From positions 15,312-79,311 of IMG/VR virus record IMGVR_UViG_3300020045_003390: 64,000 nucleotides of DNA; one strand, written 5' to 3'. The notes beneath the pieces were generated by a model, which was not told the origin of the DNA, did not search any database, and was given only the letters and a program-made list of their open reading frames with translations. Made by a program: the position numbers and the translations under genes. Position 1 is the stretch's first letter. Each line of letters opens with the position of its first letter. This document shows, piece by piece, positions 14,082-63,622 of this stretch. The stretch is from a virus (Duplodnaviria > Caudoviricetes).

Positions 14082-17000
14082 ATGAGTTCAGTAATTTATC
14101 TTGAAAATGGACTATGCCCACAAAACCGAAGAGTAGAGCAACTTACTGGAAGTATCCAAGAACTCTCCCCTGATTGGCAAACACCTTATGTTGCGTTTGT
14201 TGATGGAAAACCTATACTTCGTGCAGACTGGAATTTAATTCCTAATGACGACCAGTCTTTAGTCTTTATTGATGCGGACGCAATACCTCAAGGTGGGGGA
14301 GGTGGTGGGTCAAACCCATTGCGTACAATTCTGATGATAGTTGTAATGATTTATGCCCCAGCGATTGCCGCCCAGATGTCCTATGCCATGGGCGGGGGTA
14401 TGGTCTTAGGGTCGGTCGGTGGACTTGCTGCTATGCAGGCTGGTGTGATGTTTGCAGGTATGGCTTTAGTCAATGCTATTGCGCCAGCACCAAAGCCCAC
14501 AAGCCCTCAACAAGCGGCGGCACTGGCGGCGGCTAGCCCCACATATAGCTTGCAAGCACAAGGTAATACTGCTCGTTTAGATGCTGCGATTCCTGAGCAT
14601 TTCGGACGGCATATAGTATACCCGGACTTTGCCGCAACCCCCTATACGGAGTATGCAGGTAATGAACAATACCTTTATCAACTCCTTTGTGTAGGCAGGG
14701 GTAGCTACGATCTTGAACCTTTAAAGATTGAAGACACCCCAATTTCAAGTTTTGATGAAATCACCACTGAAGTTATTCAGCCGTACGGCCAAGTCACCTT
14801 ATTCCCTGCTAGCGTCACTACAAGTATAGAGGTTGCGGGGCAGAGTCTCTCTACTGCCTTTACTGGACCATTTATCGCAAATGCCTCTGGAACTGAAACA
14901 AACAGACTGTCATTTGATTTTGTAGCGAGTAGGGGACTTTATTATGCTAACGACAATGGTTCATTGTCGGCAGTCAGTGTGGATTTTCAAATAGAGGTTG
15001 CCTCCGTAGATGATTATGGTAACTTGATTAGTGGCTGGACAGCACTTACTATGTCATATACTAGCTGGTCAGACTGGACGTTTGTCTCGACTCAACAAAC
15101 ATCAGTTAATCCATATACAGATACAGATACCCAACAGTGGCAAGTTAGCGACAAGCCATTAGGATCACTTGCTGGTCAACTAGCACAGCAAGGCTTATCA
15201 ACTTGGGCACTTTATACAAGAACTAGATCAACTCATGTAGGGCTTATACAATCTGGAGCGACGACAACTGCACAACGCTGGAGCTGGAGTTTTGATATCC
15301 CTGTTGGTCGGTACACTACTCGTGTCAGGAGGCTTTCCACAGAAAGTACAGATACAAGATATTCTGATGGTATATCTTGGGTTGGCTTACGTGCATATCA
15401 CCCTGATCCGGTTGGTAAGAACTACGGCGACGTTACCTTAATCGCAGTTCGAATGAGAGCGACCGATAGCCTCAGCTCGCAGTCAAGCCGGAAACTAAAT
15501 CTCATTGCAACACGAAAACTTCCTATTTGGAATGGTTCATCTTGGAGTGGATTGACTGCTACACGAAACCCAGCTTGGGCACTTGCATACGCAGCTAAGC
15601 AAGTTGGGCAAAATGATTCAACCATTGACCTTTCTGGGCTATTAACACTCGCGAATGGGTGCACCGCTAGAGGTGATAATTTCGATGCCCGGTTTGATAG
15701 CTTTTTAAGTTTCTGGGAGGCAGCAACAAAAATATGCCAAGCAGTTAGAGCAAAACCCTTCATCCAGGGTAGTGTTTTAAGGGTTGTTCGTGACCAATCA
15801 AGTACTATTCCAGTTGCGATGTTTAGCCAAAGAAACATTGTAAAAGGCTCTTTTTCAGTTAACTATTTAATGCCAACTGAAGATACCGCTGATAGTGTTG
15901 ACGTTTCTTACTTTGATGAGATTACTTGGAAGAGCGCCAAGGTACGCTCTACCCTTGCGGGTAGCACAGCAGACAAGCCAGCTAAAATTGATTTGTTTGG
16001 GGTGATTGATCGCACCAAGGCTTGGCAAGAGGGGTTATACCAAGCTGCTTGTAATAGGTATCGTCGTAAGATGATAACCTTTAAGACAGAGATGGAAGGT
16101 TTCATCCCTTCATTCTTAGACCTCGCTACAGTTCAGCATGATATGCCAGCTTGGGGGCAATCTGGTGAAGTTGTTGCTTGGAATTCTGGTACAAAAACCT
16201 TGACCCTAAGTGAACCTCCTGTTTTTACGACAGGTACTCATTATATCGCTTTACGTGATAGAGGTGGCGCTCCCAAAGGGCCGTATGCTTGTGTAGTAGG
16301 AAGTAGCCCTTACGAAGTTGTACTATCAGAATTACCTGCAATAACACCGTATGTAGGAATGGATGAAGAGCGTACTCATTTTGCATTTGGCCCTGGAATT
16401 GCTTGGAGTCAACCGATACGTGTACTTACAGCAAAGCCCACTGGTGTTAATCAAGTAGAGATAACTGCTGTAAACGAAGATGCAAGTGTACACACTGCGG
16501 ATGTCGGTGTAACAATGCCAAGGCAGATATTTTCGCAGTTAGCAACTTATCAAAATGCACCTACTGTTTTAGGTGTAACTGCATACCCTGCACCATTTGC
16601 ACCAAATAAACTCCTCGTTCAATGGAGTCCTAGCCCGTGGGCAACGCACTATTATGTAGAACAAAGTCAAGATAGGGTTAACTGGACTAGAAGTGCTGAT
16701 GTTGAGTCTAATAATGTAACATTTCAGAAGCTTTTTTCTGGTAGTGCTTACGTCCGTGTTGCTGCAGTTAACCTTACCCGAGGTCCATGGTTTGAAGTTC
16801 CTATAACACCATCCCCAGTACCTGAAGATGTTTCTGCATTAGCCATAGAAGATATTAATCTATCTTGGCCTGCGGTTAGTGATCAGGATATTGTAGGTTA
16901 TAGAATTAAGTTTCATTATGGCACAAATCTAGAATGGGGGACAGCAAACCTTCTTTATGATGGTCTAGTGACATCATCCCCATACCTCATGCAAGTTGTC

Positions 17001-38825: not shown

Positions 38826-40967
38826 TTAGTGAATCTCCGAGTAACGCTTACCCACTTGGCTTTCACAACCCAACAATCTACGAAGTTTAAAGTCTTTATT
38901 CACTTTGTCAATAGAAGTCTTAACAATCTCTGTCACAACCTCAATGACTTTAGGGTCATCCTTGACTGTAATAATTTGTTCATCATGAAATCCCCCTGTT
39001 AAAGTTTTCCTACGCCAACGTCTTTGCATTTCTTCTAAGATGTTGTCCACCCACATATCAAAGAAAAAACTCCCAGTCCCTTGAGCTAATGTAGAGAACC
39101 TATCAGAGTCTTTACGCAAAGAGTAGCAGAATCCGTTTACAGGATTAACCAACCACTTAGCACCTCTTGAGTCTTCAATCACAATTTGCTCCTCAGCGAT
39201 AGCCTTTACGGACCAGTTAAGTTTCCAATATGCAGTGTGCAGAGTCTTACCCTCTTCCAGTGATACACCTGCAGCTTGGGCAATCTTTGGTGCCCCCGCG
39301 TTGTACACACTAGCATAATTTGTAGTCTTGCCCTTCTTTCGACTAGCTTTTGCGTTATCTGATTTAATCCCCTTCTTAAAGTCATCATACTCTTTCTGAG
39401 TAACCATTTTAGCGGTCAAGGCCATCAAAATATGCGGATCATAATCGTCTTCCTGCATTGTTTTCACGTATTCTGGGTCATGAGGCAACATCAGGTGATG
39501 CTTAACGCGGTCCTCAAGGCTGCTCATGTCTGAGCCTATGTGAACTTTACCCTCACCAGCAATCAAAACTCCACGGACAATCTTACCGTACATCTTGTCA
39601 ATCCCAGGCAGATTTACGATTTCGGCATGCCGAACCCTGAGCGTATTAGTCAGACCTCCAATACGAGCACGTAAGAACTTTCCGTCAACCAAATCCCGCT
39701 CAAAGCCCTTCAAAATACTGAGTCGGTGCTTTGCAACATTGAATGCAGCATAAGCTTCAATCTCAGGAACTTCTTCTGACAATCGTTCAACAGAAGGGCA
39801 CAACTCTTTTCCGCTTTCACCTGTAACCGTAATCTGTGGAATTGCCCTTTCTTTTGGCTTAGTGTCTTTCCAGTGAGTCCATGCAGAGTGATGAGAGCCT
39901 TCTTTTGGCTTCTTTGAAATCCACTTATTGAATGCCTCTTCGTCCTTCTCGAATTTAAAACTCTCTGGCTTCCAGCCTTTTGAGTACAGCAATGCTTTGA
40001 TCTGTTCTGAACTATTAGCGTTCGGCTCTTCATAAGACTTCAGGACTTTTAATTCATCTGGCTTATCACTCCTAGCTACAATCAAAGTACCAAACTCGTC
40101 CACTGCTTTTGTACGAAACTGCTCAATAACTTCTTCCCATGACTTACCCGAAGAAGACAACTCACCATTTTTCAAATAAGGTTTAGCTGGCTTATGTTTT
40201 GGTGAATACTTAGGAATCTTGGGCATCACAGCCTCAAGGGCACTCTTGGACTTCTCTACTTCTATTTCCAATTCTGCAATCGAAGTCTCAAGTAGTTCAA
40301 CATCAACCTCCCAACGAGTCTTTTCTTGAAGCCTTGCACAGTCAGCTTTGAACATCAAGAATGTCAAGATACGATCAATAGCATCATCTACGGACTCTTC
40401 CCGGAATTGGTCTAGATAAATCTCTTCATCTGGACTCACCCTCGTACCACCTACAGAACCATTTGCTACAAGAGGATTAGACTTGGAGTAAATGTCAATC
40501 AACCTTGCCTTCTGATCTTCCCAAAGTGCTTTGTTGATTTTAACGTCCTCTTGGCAACGGTACGTGTACTCTTCACGAGTTAGGTTTTGCCAGTCATCAA
40601 TCTTTGGCTTCGCAATACCGAAGTCTTCAAAGAAAGAATCCAAGCCATGTTTCATTCGGTTAAAGTACAAGTACCAAGACACATACAAAGAGTCAATCAA
40701 CATTACTTCTGATAAGTCAATTCCAAGTAATTTTTCAATCAGTGGAATGTCATAAGTAATGCCGTTGTGGATGACAATAGGAATACCGTTGTCAATGTGG
40801 TATTGGAAAAACTTCTGAATCCGTTGGTGATCTTCCCCTTGAATATCAAAAGTCTTTCCATCTTGAAGTTCACAACACAAGATGTGAATCAAGGTTGCTT
40901 CATCAAGTAGGGCATCAGCCTCCAAGTCAGCAACAGTAGCATTCTTCCAGTTTGTGATTTTCTTCAT
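38826..40967 (-). CDS. polA: Family A DNA polymerase with 3'-5' exonuclease
   Basis: ADLEAD ExoI; motif A DMSSLEDR; motif B RKKGKTTNYASVY (Tyr at the 762-equivalent position); motif C FHDE. Confidence 0.93.
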   Translation of the reverse strand: MKKITNWKNATVADLEADALLDEATLIHILCCELQDGKTFDIQGEDHQRIQKFFQYHIDNGIPIVIHNGITYDIPLIEKLLGIDLSEVMLIDSLYVSWYLYFNRMKHGLDSFFEDFGIAKPKIDDWQNLTREEYTYRCQEDVKINKALWEDQKARLIDIYSKSNPLVANGSVGGTRVSPDEEIYLDQFREESVDDAIDRILTFLMFKADCARLQEKTRWEVDVELLETSIAELEIEVEKSKSALEAVMPKIPKYSPKHKPAKPYLKNGELSSSGKSWEEVIEQFRTKAVDEFGTLIVARSDKPDELKVLKSYEEPNANSSEQIKALLYSKGWKPESFKFEKDEEAFNKWISKKPKEGSHHSAWTHWKDTKPKERAIPQITVTGESGKELCPSVERLSEEVPEIEAYAAFNVAKHRLSILKGFERDLVDGKFLRARIGGLTNTLRVRHAEIVNLPGIDKMYGKIVRGVLIAGEGKVHIGSDMSSLEDRVKHHLMLPHDPEYVKTMQEDDYDPHILMALTAKMVTQKEYDDFKKGIKSDNAKASRKKGKTTNYASVYNAGAPKIAQAAGVSLEEGKTLHTAYWKLNWSVKAIAEEQIVIEDSRGAKWLVNPVNGFCYSLRKDSDRFSTLAQGTGSFFFDMWVDNILEEMQRRWRRKTLTGGFHDEQIITVKDDPKVIEVVTEIVKTSIDKVNKDFKLRRLLGCESQVGKRYSEIH

Positions 40968-41533: not shown

Positions 41534-43273
41534 TTAGACTTGTTTATTTAAATAATCTTCCAAATCCCACATTGTATGCGATTCATTGTCGTAGTAGTAC
41601 TTCCCGGCGATACCTGTCTTACCAGTCCACCTGATTTTAGTAGCTTTCATAATAGTTGTATTCCTTTCAATGTCGTCCTCAGATTCTTTATTTCTACTGA
41701 ACATTAAGTTACAAGCTGCACTTTTGTATAAATCTGAAGTGCCCATCATATCCTCTTCATGTAAATCAGCGCCTGCACTACCCGCTTTCTGACCATTTTG
41801 GGTCTTTCTGGTGTGTGCCACATTGTAGAACGTGCAAGAATGAGATTTTACCATACCTTTCTGCCAGTTCACAAACTTAATTTGCTCTTCTAGCGGTAGG
41901 CAGGACACGATGTCATGAACAGGGTCAAGAACAATGACCTTACACCCGCAAGCTACAATGAGATTTTCAATCGCCTCTTGCACCCCCACAACTTCACCTC
42001 CCCGATCATCCACTAGATAGAAGCGTGGCTCTCCGTTTTCAAGGTTAAAAAGTTCGTACTCCTTCTCCTTGATGTCCTCCCTTCCAAGAATAGCCAATGC
42101 ATCCGAGTTTTCTAACAACTCAAGTTTTTGACTGATATGTCGAGAGAGTAACTTAATACCATACTGACCCTTTGTACTCTCTAAAGTAACAACCCCAACC
42201 TTATGTGGAGAGTTAAAAAGCATATAGTAGATAATTTCGTCAACAATGGTCGATTTGCCAGTTCCACTGGCTGAACTCAAGTTCAGGATTCTTCCGAGGG
42301 GTACACCCCCTGCCATCATACCTTGCAGCTTATGCATAAATGGTGGCAGGGGGATTTTGGGGACCATGAACTCTTCCCGCATTGAATCAGAAATCTGGTT
42401 ACTACCAACTACGCCCACAGGCACATACGTCTTAGCATTGTAGAAATCACTGATAAAAGACTTTTGATCACCTTTTGTCAAATACTCGTTTGCATCCTTA
42501 TGCTTCATCTGCATGATCTTAATTTTGCCTTTTGGCATAACCTTCACAATGCTATCAATAGCTTTCTGTCCAGGCTCATCTCCGTCATATGAGATTATGA
42601 TTTGTTCAAACATGTCATAGAAAGCATAATTGTTTGCAATCTGCTTTGCTGACTGCGCACCAGTAGTTGCAGAAACAACTGCTACTTCATAATCACTTCC
42701 TCGTTTCTCATTATACTCCTTGAGCATCTGATACGCGGATAGGGCATCAATTTCCCCCTCCGTCAAAATAACGTACTTCCCGCCACGAGGAAAACGGAAC
42801 TGCATGAAGCATTCTGTAGTTGCTCCTGTACGACCAATACTCTTAAAGTCCTTTGGAACTTCACGTACCTTGTACCCTGTCAACTTCCCCTGTTGTGTGC
42901 AAGGGTAGTATTGTTCAATCACAGAGCCATCTTCCTCGGAGAAACTATGACGTACACCGAAGTAAGATGTAATACTGTCACTCAGCCCACGGTAGCCATT
43001 ACAACGTGTAGAAGTCTCATCCTTGATCTGCTGTGCTTTCTCTTCTGAGATAGCCTCTTTTTCTTTAACAGGTTTTCCTGTAGTTTCTTGTTGCATTACT
43101 TCCTTTCGTATTTTTGGTTTATTCTTTGTGTTGTGTTCTTCTTTGTACTCTTCACTAGGAATTGTGTATCCGCACCCTGCAACGAAGCAATGCACTGATC
43201 CATCATCATACTCAGCACAACCATCTGAGCTTCCGCATTTGGGGCAGCTTGTGTGTTTAACGAAGTTTGCTAT
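41534..43273 (-). CDS. Primase-helicase (Zn finger + TOPRIM + SF4 helicase), extended to ATA start
   Basis: CPKC...HC...C finger upstream of the ORF-track start; LTEGEIDAL, YDGDEPG, SGTGKST, VLDP, AHTRK. Confidence 0.9.
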   Translation of the reverse strand: MANFVKHTSCPKCGSSDGCAEYDDGSVHCFVAGCGYTIPSEEYKEEHNTKNKPKIRKEVMQQETTGKPVKEKEAISEEKAQQIKDETSTRCNGYRGLSDSITSYFGVRHSFSEEDGSVIEQYYPCTQQGKLTGYKVREVPKDFKSIGRTGATTECFMQFRFPRGGKYVILTEGEIDALSAYQMLKEYNEKRGSDYEVAVVSATTGAQSAKQIANNYAFYDMFEQIIISYDGDEPGQKAIDSIVKVMPKGKIKIMQMKHKDANEYLTKGDQKSFISDFYNAKTYVPVGVVGSNQISDSMREEFMVPKIPLPPFMHKLQGMMAGGVPLGRILNLSSASGTGKSTIVDEIIYYMLFNSPHKVGVVTLESTKGQYGIKLLSRHISQKLELLENSDALAILGREDIKEKEYELFNLENGEPRFYLVDDRGGEVVGVQEAIENLIVACGCKVIVLDPVHDIVSCLPLEEQIKFVNWQKGMVKSHSCTFYNVAHTRKTQNGQKAGSAGADLHEEDMMGTSDLYKSAACNLMFSRNKESEDDIERNTTIMKATKIRWTGKTGIAGKYYYDNESHTMWDLEDYLNKQV

Positions 43274-45018: not shown

Positions 45019-45339
45019 TCATAATACCTCCTTTCGTTCCAAATATCTCCGTTTCAACTCCTCCTGAAAAGCAGGAGACACAACAAACTTCATTGTCATT
45101 CCAGCAGGAACTTCATAATCCTTGTCCGTAAGTCCTGAGTGCATCACCCTTGGCTTGCTGTATTTTGGACTGAACGTACCAAATCCTGTAAGAGACACCT
45201 GAGAACCTTCAAGCATCAGTTCTTCAATCGTCTTACGGAAGATATCCAAGAAGTCTTGGCACTCGTAGATAGTGTACATCTTATCGGATGTATTTGACAT
45301 AGCTTTTGCTAGGTCTTTTGGGAAGAGTTTGGTTGTCAT
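45019..45339 (-). CDS. HU/IHF-like DNA-binding protein
   Basis: VSLTGFGTFS....R......T.....VPA....KF. Confidence 0.85.
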   Translation of the reverse strand: MTTKLFPKDLAKAMSNTSDKMYTIYECQDFLDIFRKTIEELMLEGSQVSLTGFGTFSPKYSKPRVMHSGLTDKDYEVPAGMTMKFVVSPAFQEELKRRYLERKEVL

Positions 45340-49684: not shown

Positions 49685-49718
49685 TTGCAAGGCGACGGCA
49701 GAATGCCTAGCCGTCTTT
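49685..49718 (-). promoter_or_regulatory. Leader hairpin element, copy 1
   Basis: AAAGACGGC-N10-GCCGTC-GCCTTGCAA. Confidence 0.75.
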
Positions 49719-49720
49719 GC

Positions 49721-49749
49721 AGTGTAACACACCTTTTCATGGTCGTCAA
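49721..49749 (-). promoter_or_regulatory. Leftward sigma70 promoter of the replication arm
   Basis: TTGACG-17 nt-TACACT with TG extension. Confidence 0.75.
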
Positions 49750-49761
49750 CAAAAATTTTAC

Positions 49762-49791
49762 TTGCTTGATTTGTTGCGTTTATGCTATGAT
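49762..49791 (+). promoter_or_regulatory. Rightward sigma70-like promoter
   Basis: TTGCTT-18 nt-TATGAT with TG extension. Confidence 0.6.
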
Positions 49792-49816
49792 AGCACTTTT
49801 AAAGAAAGGAGGTCAA

Positions 49817-50155
49817 GTGAAACACAACGAACAACAATGGCTCAAGCTTCCGCTTGGCCTTCTGCAACACAAAGAACTTAGTTTAAGCGCAAAAGTGATC
49901 TATGTCTACATGCTCTGGAGATTTCAGTTCTTCACCAAAGTACAGAAAGCATCATACTTTGAGGCACAAGAGACAATTGCTGATGCAACAGGTGTAAGCC
50001 GCAAGACAGTCAATGAAAGCATTCAACAACTTTCAAAGCTAGGTTTTGTATCTTACAAAAAGACTAAGCGAAGCAGTGTCTACGAAGTCAAAGATGTGTT
50101 TCATATTTACAACAACAAAAAGGGGGTACACATGGAATCAGAAGAACCCTTCTAG
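49817..50155 (+). CDS. Winged HTH protein (replication-initiator N-terminal / HTH_36-like)
   Basis: AAGGAGG + GTG; LSLSAKVIYVYM...AQETIADATGVSRKTVNESIQQLSKLGFV. Confidence 0.8.
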   Translation: MKHNEQQWLKLPLGLLQHKELSLSAKVIYVYMLWRFQFFTKVQKASYFEAQETIADATGVSRKTVNESIQQLSKLGFVSYKKTKRSSVYEVKDVFHIYNNKKGVHMESEEPF

Positions 50156-50159
50156 TTGT

Positions 50160-50192
50160 AAAGACGGCACCAGCGGGGCTGTCGCCTTGTAA
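50160..50192 (+). promoter_or_regulatory. Leader hairpin element, copy 2
   Basis: AAAGACGGC-N9-GCTGTC-GCCTTGTAA. Confidence 0.75.
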
Positions 50193-50246
50193 CCTTTTTA
50201 CACAAGGTGTGTAACTTTTTCTCTCTTTGGGTTGTAACCTTTTTAC
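50187..50246 (+). repeat. Three iteron-like direct repeats
   Basis: TTGTAACCTTTTTAC at 50187 and 50232 plus GTGTAACTTTTT between; TGTAAC at 50188, 50210, 50233. Confidence 0.75.
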
Positions 50247-50645
50247 GCACTAATAAGAAAGAAGGAGTAAGAAAGAGAATAATAAGAAAGATTGTATTTT
50301 AAGAAAGGAATAATTATGTTTGTGATTACAAAAGAATGGTTTGACTCCAATAGGGACTTTGTTAGTGGTTTAAATCGTGCTCAAGCAGACGCTGTAGATG
50401 TACCTTACCCATTAAAGAAGGGTTGGAAAATTGATGTACTTGGAAAGAATATTACTCTAGAGCAAAAAGAGAACTTTGAAAAACTTAAAGGTTGTGTGTA
50501 CTCCGTAAGGAAGAAACGAATCAAGTCTTCCAGAACTATCAAGTCCCTTGAGTCAGAAAGAGAAGTTCTTGAACTACAGCTTGAGATTGCAAGGATGAAA
50601 GTTGAACTTAAGAAATTGAACAAGAAAGCTAAGTAGCGCTTGCAC

Positions 50646-53700: not shown

Positions 53701-56700
53701 TTCGGGTTAATAAGTTTTGGTAATTTATAAAGGATTAAACATGCAATATACAGACGAACAAAACGAAACTCAAATCAACCCAGACGATATCGCAGGATAC
53801 ATCATTCGACGTAGCCCTACTTCACGATTGCTTTTTAATGTCTACGCAGTATCCCCCAAGGATGAACTTCTGTTCTGTGCAGCAAGTGATCTTAGTGCTG
53901 AGAAAGCTATGGCGTTTGCTGAGGCTTTGAATGAGGAGTACTATCCGGCGGTTCCTACGCCAACAGAGGCTGCATTTATTGAGGTTGGAGGGGTGGAGAA
54001 GGTTTATAACATTACTAGTACAACAAAGGGTTGATATGATTACTTATGAAGCCTTTTGCAAAATGTACCAACATATCAATCCTCATCCTACTCCGGGGGA
54101 TTTCAAGAATCTGAAACCAGGGATTACTAAAGTTCCTCCTACTAAGCATATTGCTGTATCTGTTGGGGCAGTTCACCAACTTATGCACATGAAGCCAATT
54201 CACTCTGATGGTTTGGAAAACATTAATAATCTTGATTGGGAGCTTTTCACAGTCAGCTACGAAGGGGTTATTGAAGGTGTAAATTACTACTGGGGTATGT
54301 TCGTAGAAGGAATTGGGGCTTTCAATGTAATGGTGGTCAAAGAATTTACCCGAGAACTTACACAGCAAGAACGGGACACTTGGAGTAAGAAAACACTTGG
54401 TATGTATGGTTCTCACTCTGGGAAACTTTCTTACACTTTTTCATCTGGTGTGGGGGGCCAGTTAACATGAAACCAACTGACACCCTCTCTGGCTTTGTTC
54501 GTACAATCAATCTCTTAGGACATGGAAAGGATAAGCAGCCTTACGAAAAGAGTAAAAGCAAAGAAAAGCGCAAGGATTATTCTAATGAGAGAAATAAGAA
54601 AAGGAACTGGGAATGAAAGTATTTTATAAATCTATCATTAACGAAATTAATGAACTTGCTATCAAGTACTACAAAGAAAATGGTATTCATCCAACCCATG
54701 CAGAAATAACAAAGGGAGAGTGGAACTTACTAAAGAGTGAACTGCGTAAAAATGGTATGATTTTTGAAAATGCTCCTGATTTTAGTCGTTGTATGATTCT
54801 TGGCCTTTTGATTGAGGTTAAGTAATGAAGATTAACAAAACACTTAAAGCATTTATTTATGCCCTTTTGACAGTTATTCTCGCATGTGTTCTTGCTGCTG
54901 GTATTATTTGTCTTAAACTTTTCTTTGGCCCTACAGGGATACTAATTCTCTACGGTACGTTTGTTTTGGTGGCCTTGACTTGCATGTTCCGGGTAGTATC
55001 CAATGACTAAACCCCTACCCGTTAAGGAGCGTGACATCGTTCAGATTCTCCCAGGTTGCCCCTTCAGTTCTTTGGTGCACTCCAAAGGAATTGTCCGAAG
55101 TTCTTTAGGTCTTATGAGTTGTATTGTAGAATTTCCTACGGAGAAACGTAGCCAAGACTTTGATACAATGGAGGTGCTTCAAGGAAAGTTCTGGTGCATT
55201 CATTGGAAGTATCTGCGAGTAATTGAGAGTGCTTATGATGATAGACTTGGGGAACTTGAGCACAAGATACAAGACCTTGAGGATAATTTAGTGTTCTCTC
55301 AAAGCTGTTTGTCAATGAGTGAACAACTCAGGGATCAGCAAGCGGATTTGATTGAAAGGCTTGTAGAAGAGCTTGACATTTTGAAAGCAAAGGTTTATCA
55401 CCTGAGCAATGGTAACAACTAACGAAAGGAAAATCATGTTTTATCATTATTCACAAAATAACTCAGGTGGAAGTTTCATTTTCAATGAAGAAGATGGGAT
55501 TACACATCATGTTGTGATTGAAGCTGGCTCTGTAGGTGAGTCTCACAAGAGGGCACAAAATATTGGGCTGTACTTTGATGGTCGTTCTGAAGGGTTAGAC
55601 TGTGACTGTTGCGGGGATCGTTGGTATGCGTTGGGATGTGAAGACGGGGATGAAAAACCCTCTGTCTATGGTTCTGTATTGGGCATTAAGACTAAAGAAG
55701 GCTGGGGATGGATGAAGGATGGTTATGAGACTGTTGTTCATTTCAAAGATGGAACCAAGAAATGGTACGGAAATGACAACGTAGAGAACACTAATACTTA
55801 AGAAAGGAAGACATATGCCAGACACCAAGAAACTTAATGCAGCAGTTGCTATTATTAGTTTGCAACTTATGGATGCACAAGGTGGGCTAACTGAAGAGGA
55901 AGTATCAAAGGTAACAACATTGTGTGATCGTCTTATTGAGACAGACTTGTACAAAGAAGATGGTGAGCATCAAAATAAGTCTTGCATCCAGCACGCAATC
56001 AAACTGATTGAAGAATACCTAGAGGAAGAAGGGGTTTGATCGTGATTGAATCTCAAGACCAACTAACCAACGCTAAACTTTCCATCTACCTCTTGATGTA
56101 CTCTATCATCAAGGTAAATCCTAGTTACTTCAGTGAAGATGTGTATAAAGCTGTCTCTTTGCATGAAAAGGATTTCATTAAGCAAGTACAAAATATGGAT
56201 GAAGGTGTTACAATTAATGATTTATTAGTTAGTTTATTTGAAAAAGAAAGGATGCACTGATGATTGAACCAACTTGGCTAACAGGGCCAGAACCTACACA
56301 AGAACGAATATTTGCAGAGTGGTTAAACACTAAAAGAGATTTTACAGTCCAAGAAGTGTTTCATGAAATTATGCAATGGTATGCCAAAAAACCTTACTTA
56401 AAGGAACAACATGACCACATCGGTTAAAGATATCACAGAACTTGTTGACTTGCATTGCACAAGCATTCGTTTCACTGAACTCGATAGGCTTCTCAAGAAG
56501 TTAGATCATGAAGACTTGGATGTACTTCGTGCTATGTTTGAAGAGGTTTATGATCCAATAGAAGCAATTGCGGATGCGTACATACAAGACTTACAAGATG
56601 AATATTACGACAAGGGTTACAAGGAAGGATATGATGTCGCTGTTTCTGAAATTAAAGCAGATGATCGTTATGAAGAGGGTTACTCGGATGGGTACAACAA

Positions 56701-61672: not shown

Positions 61673-63557
61673 AAAGGCGGGGTTAGATAAATTTTATCGA
61701 AGCTAGTTTTGTTTGATTGGTTAAATGTATGATAGAATGTAGGCATCACTCAGGAGTTATCATGAAATCAGAACGTAAAGCTAACGATTACCTCTCGCAA
61801 ACCGCTGAAGCTTTTCAGGCTGAACGCGCATTGTGGGCTAAGAAGCTGTCACCACCTGCTAAGGTTGTCCGTCCTGTGGCGAAGCCTGTTAATAGTGGTT
61901 TCTTTGGATTTTTCTTTAAGTTGGCCTGAAATAAATTCAAGATGTTGTAACCAAACAACACCTTTTTGTGTATAATTCACTACATCAACACACTGGAGCT
62001 ATCCAAATGAACAACCAAAGTATTTTTGCCAAGCACTCAAACAAAGATATTACCTCTCTTACAATCCTGGCTGCAAAAGGCTGGAAAATCTGGGGTCGAT
62101 ACGCTGCTGAACGTTTCGCAATTCGGCATGGTTTGGATTTGAGGCTTGTTAGACTGGCACGGCAATTGGAAGTAACTAAGGGGATTTGAATGAAACAGAA
62201 ATTATTGGACTTGATTGCTGACTATGCTCAAGAGGTAAAAGATTTTGGCTATTTGGACAATAGCCCTACATTGGCCGTTCTACAATCTTTTATTGATAGT
62301 CTTAACATTTAACTTAAACAAGGGGTAATATCATGGAAAACACAAAACGCACAAATCAAGGTAAGCCCTCACGTGACCGCAAAGAAGCACGGGAAAATAA
62401 AAGATACAATCAAGGTTGATAAGTTAACAAAAGTAGCATAGAATTCAATCATTCAATCAAACAAGGGTCTTATCATGAAAGTAAACGATAAAGTAATTTT
62501 CAAAGCTAGCGTTATCCGTCAATGCGGGCATAGTAGCAGTGTCGCGGGTATGCGTGGGGTTGTCTTGTCAGTCAGTGGAAAAGTGGCTGAAGTTGACTGC
62601 CTTGGCACATACAACAATGAAGAAGGTAACCGCGTGCGCTTTATTCCCGTGGCTAATTTGTGTGTATTCTCTGAAAAGCTTGGAATTTTCCCTGATGTAT
62701 CGTAAAAGTATGTTAGAATTTCAGTTATCAAAGCAATTAAGGTTATAGTGTATGAAGACAATCAATGATGTGTATGTAACCCGTAATCGCGGGCCATGGA
62801 ATGTCCCTAAGTCCCTTCAAAGTGTTATCGGGGTTCGTGAGTCTAGAATACTTAATTCTACAACATGTGAAGTGTTTCCGCATAAACTGAACAAAGATTG
62901 TGATTTTTATTTGTCGGATGACTGCACAACATATTATTGCCCAGCCAGTGGTATGTTTACAATTCAGGGTAATTCTAAAATCGTCAACTAAGGAGTAATT
63001 TATCATGTCTATTCAATCATACAAATCATTCAAGGGCACAGCACGGGAATTCATCCAAGCTGGTGTAATGATCAATGGAAAAGATATTAATCAGCCAGGG
63101 CTTAGCCTGATTGCTCAGTATGGGGTAGCTAAGATTGTGGGAGAGGTGGCACGTCCAATGGGAAAGCGGGGGCATCCTGAAAAGATTTATTTTTTACAGG
63201 GTAAAAGTGGGTTACGTGTAGAGTGGGCGGAAGTTAAACAGGATCAATTGGAGTTTGCATAATGGCACATATTACAAACATTCGTTTTCATGCTATTTAT
63301 GATCTGTTTCTGGCAGATTTGGACAACGGTGGCATTCGTGTAGGTATGGTTGACGGAGAAATTTTCGACTACCCTAGGGATCACCCTAAATATGATGAGG
63401 TTTCTAATTTGACACCTCACACAATCGAGGAGTTTTTTGATGAGCGTTATTTGAAATATGCTGGGAATGCTTGAAATGTTTTTTCCATTGGGTTCTGATT
63501 TTATGCGGTAGACGCTTGTAAAAGCGGATAGAGTAAGTTAGAATCCCTTGGAAAGCA

Positions 63558-63588
63558 ATAGACGGCTAGACAAGTCGTCGCCTTACAA
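63558..63588 (+). promoter_or_regulatory. Leader hairpin element, copy 3
   Basis: ATAGACGGC-N7-GTCGTC-GCCTTACAA, 14 nt after a -10 box. Confidence 0.75.
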
Positions 63589-63622
63589 ATTTTCAACCCC
63601 GCTAACTACTGGAGATAGCAAA

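Follow-up and report, generated by a model that had tools for sequence, protein, structure and literature searches.

A minimal winged-helix gene, phased repeats and a purine-skewed tract where two transcription arms diverge: a candidate replication origin module in an IMG/VR phage genome

What is the function of a small winged-helix gene that sits at the very point where the two transcription arms of a phage genome turn away from each other? The locus belongs to the IMG/VR virus record IMGVR_UViG_3300020045_003390 (Duplodnaviria; Caudoviricetes), a linear record of 79,311 bp with an estimated completeness of 97%. We analysed bases 15312–79311 of this record, a stretch of 64,000 nucleotides called the window below; positions are window positions unless stated otherwise. 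The leftward genes reach up to 49650 and the rightward genes begin at 49817, which agrees with the strand switch described in the first-pass annotation of this DNA, and a module made of a winged helix-turn-helix (wHTH) gene and a repeat array lies exactly at the divergence of these arms. The first-pass annotation had proposed that the module is either a replication origin or a master regulator. With a probability of about one half, we consider the module to be a lambda-like origin that lies outside its gene and is served by a minimal initiator, which would recruit replisome proteins by a tail resembling the C-terminal tip of SSB, the bacterial protein that binds single-stranded DNA. The parts that carry this proposal are:

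49817–50155, plus strand: wHTH gene, GTG start behind a GGAGG site, 112 aa, tail codons at about 50117–50152
50188–50247, plus strand: candidate iteron array, three units at 50188, 50210 and 50233, spaced by 22 and 23 bp
50249–50310, plus strand: purine-skewed, A+T-rich tract with three 9-nt repeats, a candidate DNA-unwinding element that also holds the ribosome site of gene 2

The wHTH protein and its acidic tail

Judged from its profile and fold matches, the 112-aa protein is a predicted initiator-type winged helix, as had been suggested at first reading. In Pfam it scores above the cut-offs of HTH_36 (PF13730; 30 bits, cut-off 25) and DUF6945 (PF22182; 34 bits, cut-off 28). The top match in PHROGs is phrog_8102, 'replication initiation protein' (E=2e-17), covering the first third of the profile only, and the next ones are DnaD-like and O-like initiator families, the latter being weak (E 9e-6 to 4e-3). 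Phage_rep_O (PF04492) is absent among the Pfam matches at E<=1, and the match to RepA_N (PF06970) stays below the Pfam cut-off (14 bits vs 30). An AlphaFold model based on 20 homologues gives a classic winged helix with a predicted local distance difference test score (pLDDT) of 82.8 and with residues 101–110 disordered. Past the wing, about 12 disordered residues are all that remains, and there is no C-terminal domain for binding a helicase loader. The top fold match in the PDB, which is the sole match at the sequence level as well, is an uncharacterised N-terminal domain from Vibrio cholerae (4ro3). Foldseek neighbours in the PDB are N-terminal domains of staphylococcal RepA_N initiators, with and without iteron DNA (template modelling score 0.59–0.63), and those in the viral structure library BFVD are named replication initiator, replisome organiser, GpO N-terminal and DUF6945.

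It had been suggested that the gene encodes a truncated initiator whose iterons have become non-coding. Our results speak against truncation. Searching 1.84 billion cluster representatives in one HMMER pass yielded 153 family matches, most of them 100–180 aa long, and by these counts the short form is a large, stable family of 100–200-aa proteins with a conserved C-terminal motif of its own. There are also longer relatives in which two tandem HTH_36 domains occur with RepL, RP-C, DnaD_N or Phage_rep_O signals, the arrangement seen in classical initiators. When the phage collection was searched at the protein level, all homologues found, in rV5-like and Aeromonas phages, were without the tail, and a search for homologues on plasmids found none. 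The tail-less 105-aa homologue of the rV5-like phages is annotated as 'replication initiation protein' and has a phosphoribosyl pyrophosphate synthetase gene directly downstream; in Cronobacter phage GAP31 (L048) repeats lie upstream of its gene GAP31_179, at L048:1399–1445.

At the C-terminus, close relatives (52–93% identity) share a conserved acidic run that ends in Pro-Phe. Among 118 cluster representatives of up to 200 aa, an acidic tail with a terminal aromatic residue is present in 74 (~63%), and 51 end in PF. Of these 74 tails, 55 have Pro at position −2; Asp or Glu prevails at positions −4 to −8, and Leu or Ile is frequent at −3. The consensus reads four or five D/E, then D/L/I, then P-F. 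As a sequence pattern, this family consensus matches the bacterial SSB C-terminal tip. The SSB tip DDDIPF recruits numerous proteins that act in replication, restart and repair (PMC5872125, PMC7145534). T7 gp2.5 has a similar acidic tail, and its terminal Phe is indispensable when the protein works together with the polymerase (Ghosh et al. 2009, cited in PMC9917605). A beta-clamp-binding motif of the QL[SD]LF type was also considered and rejected: there is no conserved Gln, and the Pro at −2 does not agree with it. In the whole genome, the wHTH gene is the sole open reading frame (ORF) with an acidic C-terminal tail ending in Phe, and both PolA and the primase-helicase are without such a tail.

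Compared with cultured phages, one of the tail-bearing representatives had no match and another matched the rV5-like group only. Among the titles and abstracts found in the literature there was none on a winged-helix initiator with an SSB-like tail. What is new is that stand-alone winged helices of the initiator type, which form a large family, carry a tail like the SSB tip, and this tail suggests a simple mechanism of recruitment.

The repeat array, the tract and their relatives

The three repeats and the A/G-rich tract that follows them, both noticed at first reading, were confirmed, the repeats as exact copies. The array unit is the 11-nt TGTAACYTTTT, and apart from its three exact copies it is found nowhere in the 79-kb genome on either strand. 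Every unit contains a central T5 run. Units 1 and 3 form in addition a partial dyad, TGTAA-N5-TTACA, which at up to one mismatch is confined to the array, bar chance-level matches elsewhere in the genome. The array begins 33 nt past the wHTH stop codon; Tandem Repeats Finder misses it because the spacers differ. We regard its units as candidate binding sites (iterons) for the wHTH protein.

The adjoining tract holds the 9-nt purine repeat TAAGAAAGA three times, at 50254, 50268 and 50283, i.e. 14–15 nt apart. With 48 purines in 60 nt it shares the maximum of the genome; a second, equally purine-rich stretch (48/60) lies at 54517–54620 on the plus strand, between the ORFs at 54470 and 55003 and before a short unlisted reading frame. 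By nearest-neighbour duplex stability the tract belongs to the lowest 0.02–0.2% of scan windows and ranks about fourth to sixth, depending on the size of the scan window. The least stable 100 bp of the genome are found at genome positions 15130–15229 (window −181 to −82), together with the near-consensus promoter TTGACT-17-TATAAT, and this stretch could be an alternative unwinding site. Array and tract together have the layout of an iteron-type theta origin, namely at least three phased repeats beside an A+T-rich tract of low stability.

Is this layout conserved? The comparison in cis covers four independent lineages: the window and the loci L002/L003, L011 and L006, with protein identities to the window of 79, 48 and 34%, respectively. 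Scans of IMG/VR and of metagenomes and genomes with the family alignment yielded L002/L003 and L006 only, and DNA-pattern scans of IMG/VR gave mostly chance matches, L011 being the only new relative. In L002/L003, the same three units spaced by 22 and 23 bp follow directly after the stop codon, and both the purine tract and gene 2 are kept; the left flank is unrelated to that of the window. The array of L011 comprises four units with spacings of 22, 23 and 23 bp, and each unit is a near-perfect dyad TGTAA-N5-TTACA. After the array comes a purine tract with a slightly different 9-nt repeat and then, as in L002, a homologue of gene 2. In L006 two 19-nt repeats of a different sequence stand 24 bp apart directly after the stop codon, the protein tail ends in acidic residues and Ala-Phe, and the recognition helix (residues 62–75 in the window protein) differs at several positions. 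A changed unit together with a changed helix would fit co-variation of protein and site, as a single case. The start of the tract, CACTAATAAGA, is retained in L002, L011 and L006. Downstream of the tract in L006 (L006:425–485) there are three or four copies of a ~10-nt CTTCTTAGGA-like motif with a spacing of ~12 nt. The origin-like layout of repeats and tract is conserved together with the gene. Note that no relative (L002/L003, L011, L006) has a longer frame running through the repeats, which is what the truncation idea would have led one to look for.

Moreover, the intergenic region of the window is 85% identical to that of L002 and 60% to that of L011, while the flanking genes are 79–82% and 55–59% identical and the upstream spacer 58% and 43%. 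Since the intergenic identity is at the level of the flanking genes, the non-coding stretch is under constraint. Good dyads are present in two of three units in the window, one of three in L002 and four of four in L011. The dyad as a strict feature was rejected on account of L002, and because dyad quality varies between relatives, monomer and dimer binding are both possible.

Transcription, hairpins and gene content around the module

The module is flanked and followed by these features:

49749 to 49721, minus strand: leftward sigma-70-type promoter, TTGACG-17-TACACT with TG before the −10, 9/12 in the consensus scan, serving the arm of replication and nucleotide metabolism
49762–49791, plus strand: rightward promoter with a weak −35 (3/6) and an extended −10, read from the sequence, serving the wHTH gene, the array and gene 2
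50316–50636, plus strand: gene 2, 106 aa, a small N-terminal domain and a single long helix of 45 residues
50644–50683, plus strand: strong intrinsic terminator, a 12-pair stem and then a T run, which ends the two-gene operon

Both back-to-back promoters that had been proposed are present. The rightward one is below the −35 criterion of the consensus scan and is therefore not listed by it; its −10 and the neighbouring bases do not vary in L002/L003. At 49816–49787 on the minus strand there is another leftward promoter-like site, which is stronger (TTGACC-18-TATCAT with TG, 10/12). It overlaps the wHTH start codon, the ribosome site and the rightward −10, and its −35 is not kept in L002. The AlphaFold2 model of gene 2 has a pLDDT of 84.7, and the protein is conserved (38 invariant positions across 12 sequences); searches in Pfam, PHROGs, Atlas and by PDB fold gave zero matches for it.

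Three copies of a hairpin element were located:

49689–49717, minus strand: copy 1, lying at the leftward transcript's 5' end, with an RNA fold of −15.9 kcal/mol (z −3.05)
50161–50188, plus strand: copy 2, inserted between the wHTH stop codon and repeat 1, with a fold of −15.5 kcal/mol (z −1.4)
about 63555–63590, plus strand: copy 3, just after a good promoter, TTGTAA-17-TAGAAT

At first reading the wHTH gene had been described as bracketed by inverted copies of this element. The two inverted copies are real (a pattern search finds them against 0 expected in shuffles), while their membership in the module did not hold up: copy 2 is a 31-bp insertion relative to L002/L003, where the first repeat abuts the stop codon, and copy 1 is not conserved, the left flank of these relatives being unrelated. 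All three copies are sense-oriented in their own transcripts and come right after a promoter or a stop codon. The folds predicted for them are modest and not alike. Rfam gave no match. A weak terminator-like call falls on copy 2 and overlaps repeat 1, so that this copy is possibly a weak terminator or an RNA leader signal. A look-alike with the same loop letters occurs at L006:781–816, ~430 bp downstream of the L006 array. The hairpin looks like a movable RNA-level signal of this phage group that would lie outside the origin core.

The leftward arm spans 22.3–49.65 kb of the window and encodes ribonucleotide reductase, thymidylate synthase, an exonuclease and several HNH/endonuclease VII proteins, as well as the PolA and T7-type primase-helicase that had been recognised at first reading. 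PolA lies at 38826–40967 and the primase-helicase at 41534–43195. It also includes, at 45019–45339 on the minus strand, an HU/IHF-like DNA-binding protein of 106 aa (phrog_379, GFGTF motif). HU/IHF-like proteins help origin bending in other systems. The rightward arm begins at 49.8 kb with small genes without known function, and past the end of the record come packaging and structural genes. The genome is of the lytic type. The nearest cultured relatives of its primase-helicase are those of Pseudomonas phiPsa374-like phages (49% identity), and a nucleotide search against the phage collection gave zero matches. The genome has neither an oligonucleotide/oligosaccharide-binding fold nor a match to PF00436, a profile that was positive in 10 of the 14 genomes used as controls, and scanning 40 ORFs against PHROGs found no SSB either. 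Neither another initiator nor a second HTH_36 gene was found in the genome, the wHTH gene being the sole HTH_36. A T7-type RNA polymerase was not found in the genome in a search without a positive control. The cumulative GC skew, which the first-pass annotation had named as a check, has its minimum at about 49563, i.e. at the divergence of the arms.

Origin or local control

How would the module compare with known origins? In lambda the O domain is a winged helix, its sites are phased and partly dyad, an AT-rich tract beside them has to unwind, and transcription from an upstream promoter crosses the origin. The window shares with lambda the winged helix, three or four phased sites with A/T tracts, the adjoining AT-rich tract and transcription from an upstream promoter through the putative origin. 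The lambda iterons contain A-tracts, the DNA is bent, and two iterons with the AT-rich tract are enough for unwinding (PMC7466680). There are three differences. The sites lie 3' of the gene here and inside the initiator gene in lambda; the window protein has no domain for binding a P-type helicase loader and carries instead ~12 disordered residues with an acidic Pro-Phe tip; and the phage has its own PolA and primase-helicase, whereas lambda relies on host DnaB and Pol III.

The closest characterised solved folds are those of the RepA_N initiators, pSK41/pTZ2162 RepA (4pql, 4pt7, 5kbj), and this is a similarity of fold only. In RepA_N initiators the N-terminal domain binds the iterons and a separate part recruits primase. 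In place of their host-specific C-terminal domain the window protein has a short linear motif, and the plasmid iterons are inside the gene whereas the window array is outside it. With the SSB tip and the tails of T7 gp2.5 and gp4 the window protein shares an acidic run at the extreme C-terminus of a disordered tail, with Pro-Phe at its end (Phe in T7); unlike in SSB, the tail is attached to a winged helix of the duplex-DNA-binding kind and not to an oligonucleotide/oligosaccharide-binding fold. The T7 primary origin and T4 oriF/ori(34), in which an unwinding element comes after a promoter, resemble the locus in that transcription from a promoter enters a tract that is A+T-rich and strand-skewed, and the window phage has a T7-like replisome. 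Purine-rich RNA, such as would be made from the tract, favours stable RNA–DNA hybrids. In contrast to the window, the T7 and T4 origins need neither a sequence-specific initiator protein nor a repeat array.

The anatomy, its conservation, the fold and family of the protein and the family-wide tail motif are observed; binding of the repeats by the protein, unwinding of the tract, the partner of the tail and a start of replication at this site are inferred. The rightward promoter would express a minimal initiator consisting of a winged helix, a short disordered linker and an acidic Pro-Phe tail. Several copies of it would bind the three phased repeats just 3' of the gene. These repeats lie roughly on one face of the helix, and their central T5 runs should bend the DNA. 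The bound array would put stress on the adjoining purine-skewed tract of low stability, with transcription through the tract aiding its opening. The clustered tails, which resemble the SSB tip, would then offer a docking place to proteins that ordinarily bind SSB. Such partners may be the phage's own PolA or primase-helicase (an SSB gene is not recognisable in the phage) or primosome proteins of the host. Replication would run outward, co-directional with both transcription arms.

What about the other half of the original proposal, the master regulator? The repeat motif is confined to the single array, and neither a unit nor a dyad is present at 49762–49791, nor is a unit found at either promoter. 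Therefore a genome-wide regulatory role is not supported by the distribution of the motif, and classical autoregulation by promoter occlusion is, on the same grounds, unlikely. These tests leave two options, namely an origin or a roadblock acting locally between the two genes of the operon. We favour the origin because an initiator-type fold and a replication-linked tail occur together with phased T5 sites beside a strand-skewed tract of low stability, and also because no other initiator was found and the site coincides with the divergence of the arms and the minimum of GC skew, which are not independent of gene orientation.

Several observations weigh against the origin. The comparative test is limited to four independent loci. 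The tail of the window protein itself, S-E-E-P-F, is a poorer match to the SSB tip than the consensus of the family, and the L011 protein has a different C-terminal end. The tract is not the single least stable stretch of the genome, and with the ribosome site of gene 2 in it, it could be a translation leader. Both the GC-skew minimum and the divergence of the arms depend on gene orientation and are confounded by the strand switch, so that GC skew was rejected as independent evidence. For a T7-type replisome, a transcript made at a promoter plus AT-rich region can be enough to start, with no initiator protein involved. Winged helices of the HTH_36/DUF6945 kind could equally be repressors. Finally, just 5' of the ribosome site of the tail-less rV5-like homologue there are two direct repeats, each of ~20 nt and with a spacing of 22 bp, a layout that looks autoregulatory.

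The last two points lead to the alternative that survives best, in which the wHTH protein is a local repressor on the array between the genes that blocks rightward read-through, and the tract serves as the translation leader of gene 2 only. Many of the weaker Pfam and fold matches of the protein are indeed repressor families, partial dyads like those in two of the three units are often found in operators, and the array lies inside a two-gene operon ended by a strong terminator. However, the best family and fold matches are initiators, and no site overlaps either promoter, where a lone 6-nt half-site at 49723 is absent in the relatives. A repressor has no need of a family-wide SSB-tip-like tail, and the conserved, strand-skewed tract of low stability beside the array would be left unexplained. 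We consider a local repressor unlikely, and it is still the best placed of the alternatives.

The tail could also serve other ends. It might bring host or phage enzymes of repair or recombination from the SSB interactome to this locus, where they could seed recombination-dependent replication, for instance, or it might act as a decoy that titrates the SSB partners of the host, the array being no more than its anchor. The match of the tail consensus to the SSB tip is as expected here, and the exonuclease and endonuclease VII-like genes of the phage are typical of recombination-driven late replication. A pure decoy, however, needs neither a DNA-binding domain nor a conserved array in cis, and the layout of an array plus an unwinding tract is specifically origin-like; we find this explanation improbable. 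An RNA-level element seems just as improbable. Here the purine-rich tract would be a ribosome standby or enhancer site before gene 2, the U-rich repeats and the hairpin would be attenuators or processing sites, and the protein would have nothing to do with the repeats. Several Shine-Dalgarno-like runs in the tract, including one AAGGAG with no start codon after it, point in this direction, as do the sense orientation of all hairpin copies and the terminator-like call over repeat 1. Against it, Rfam gave no match, the hairpin folds are weak and differ, and the hairpin is absent in L002/L003; the phasing of 22–24 bp that is kept despite the changed units of L006 is a property of duplex DNA and not of an RNA fold. 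A pac site or a partition-type centromere with a small wHTH adaptor is very improbable: phased A/T tracts occur in some pac sites, and the protein has weak matches to small terminase in PHROGs (E=0.001) and, in sequence and fold, to the centromere-binding wHTH proteins TubR and AspA, but the genome is lytic-type, no ParA, ParM or TubZ-size ORF is nearby (the largest rightward-arm ORF within the window has 219 aa), and a small terminase or partition adaptor was rejected for its wrong genomic place and the missing motor gene.

If the origin proposal is correct, it bears on a question of some generality. Apart from T7 itself, hardly any origin is known for lytic phages whose replisome is of the T7 type, and the locus touches on the way in which a replisome of this kind reaches a defined site when the phage has no RNA polymerase of its own. 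To turn a DNA-binding domain into an initiator, a short linear motif copied from SSB would then suffice, and the same motif on 74 of 118 short family representatives suggests that this may be a general mechanism of recruitment. We propose only tentatively, as a guess at well under even odds, that this is a widespread and undescribed class, in which a single initiator-type winged helix with an SSB-tip mimic, bound on phased repeats beside an unwinding tract, would recruit SSB-docking replisome or primosome proteins to duplex DNA and so replace the helicase-loader-binding domain. The origin proposal, if correct, would moreover supply a practical rule by which origins could be located in the genomes of uncultured phages: one would look for a short HTH_36 gene whose product has a Pro-Phe tail, followed by phased repeats and next by a purine-skewed tract.

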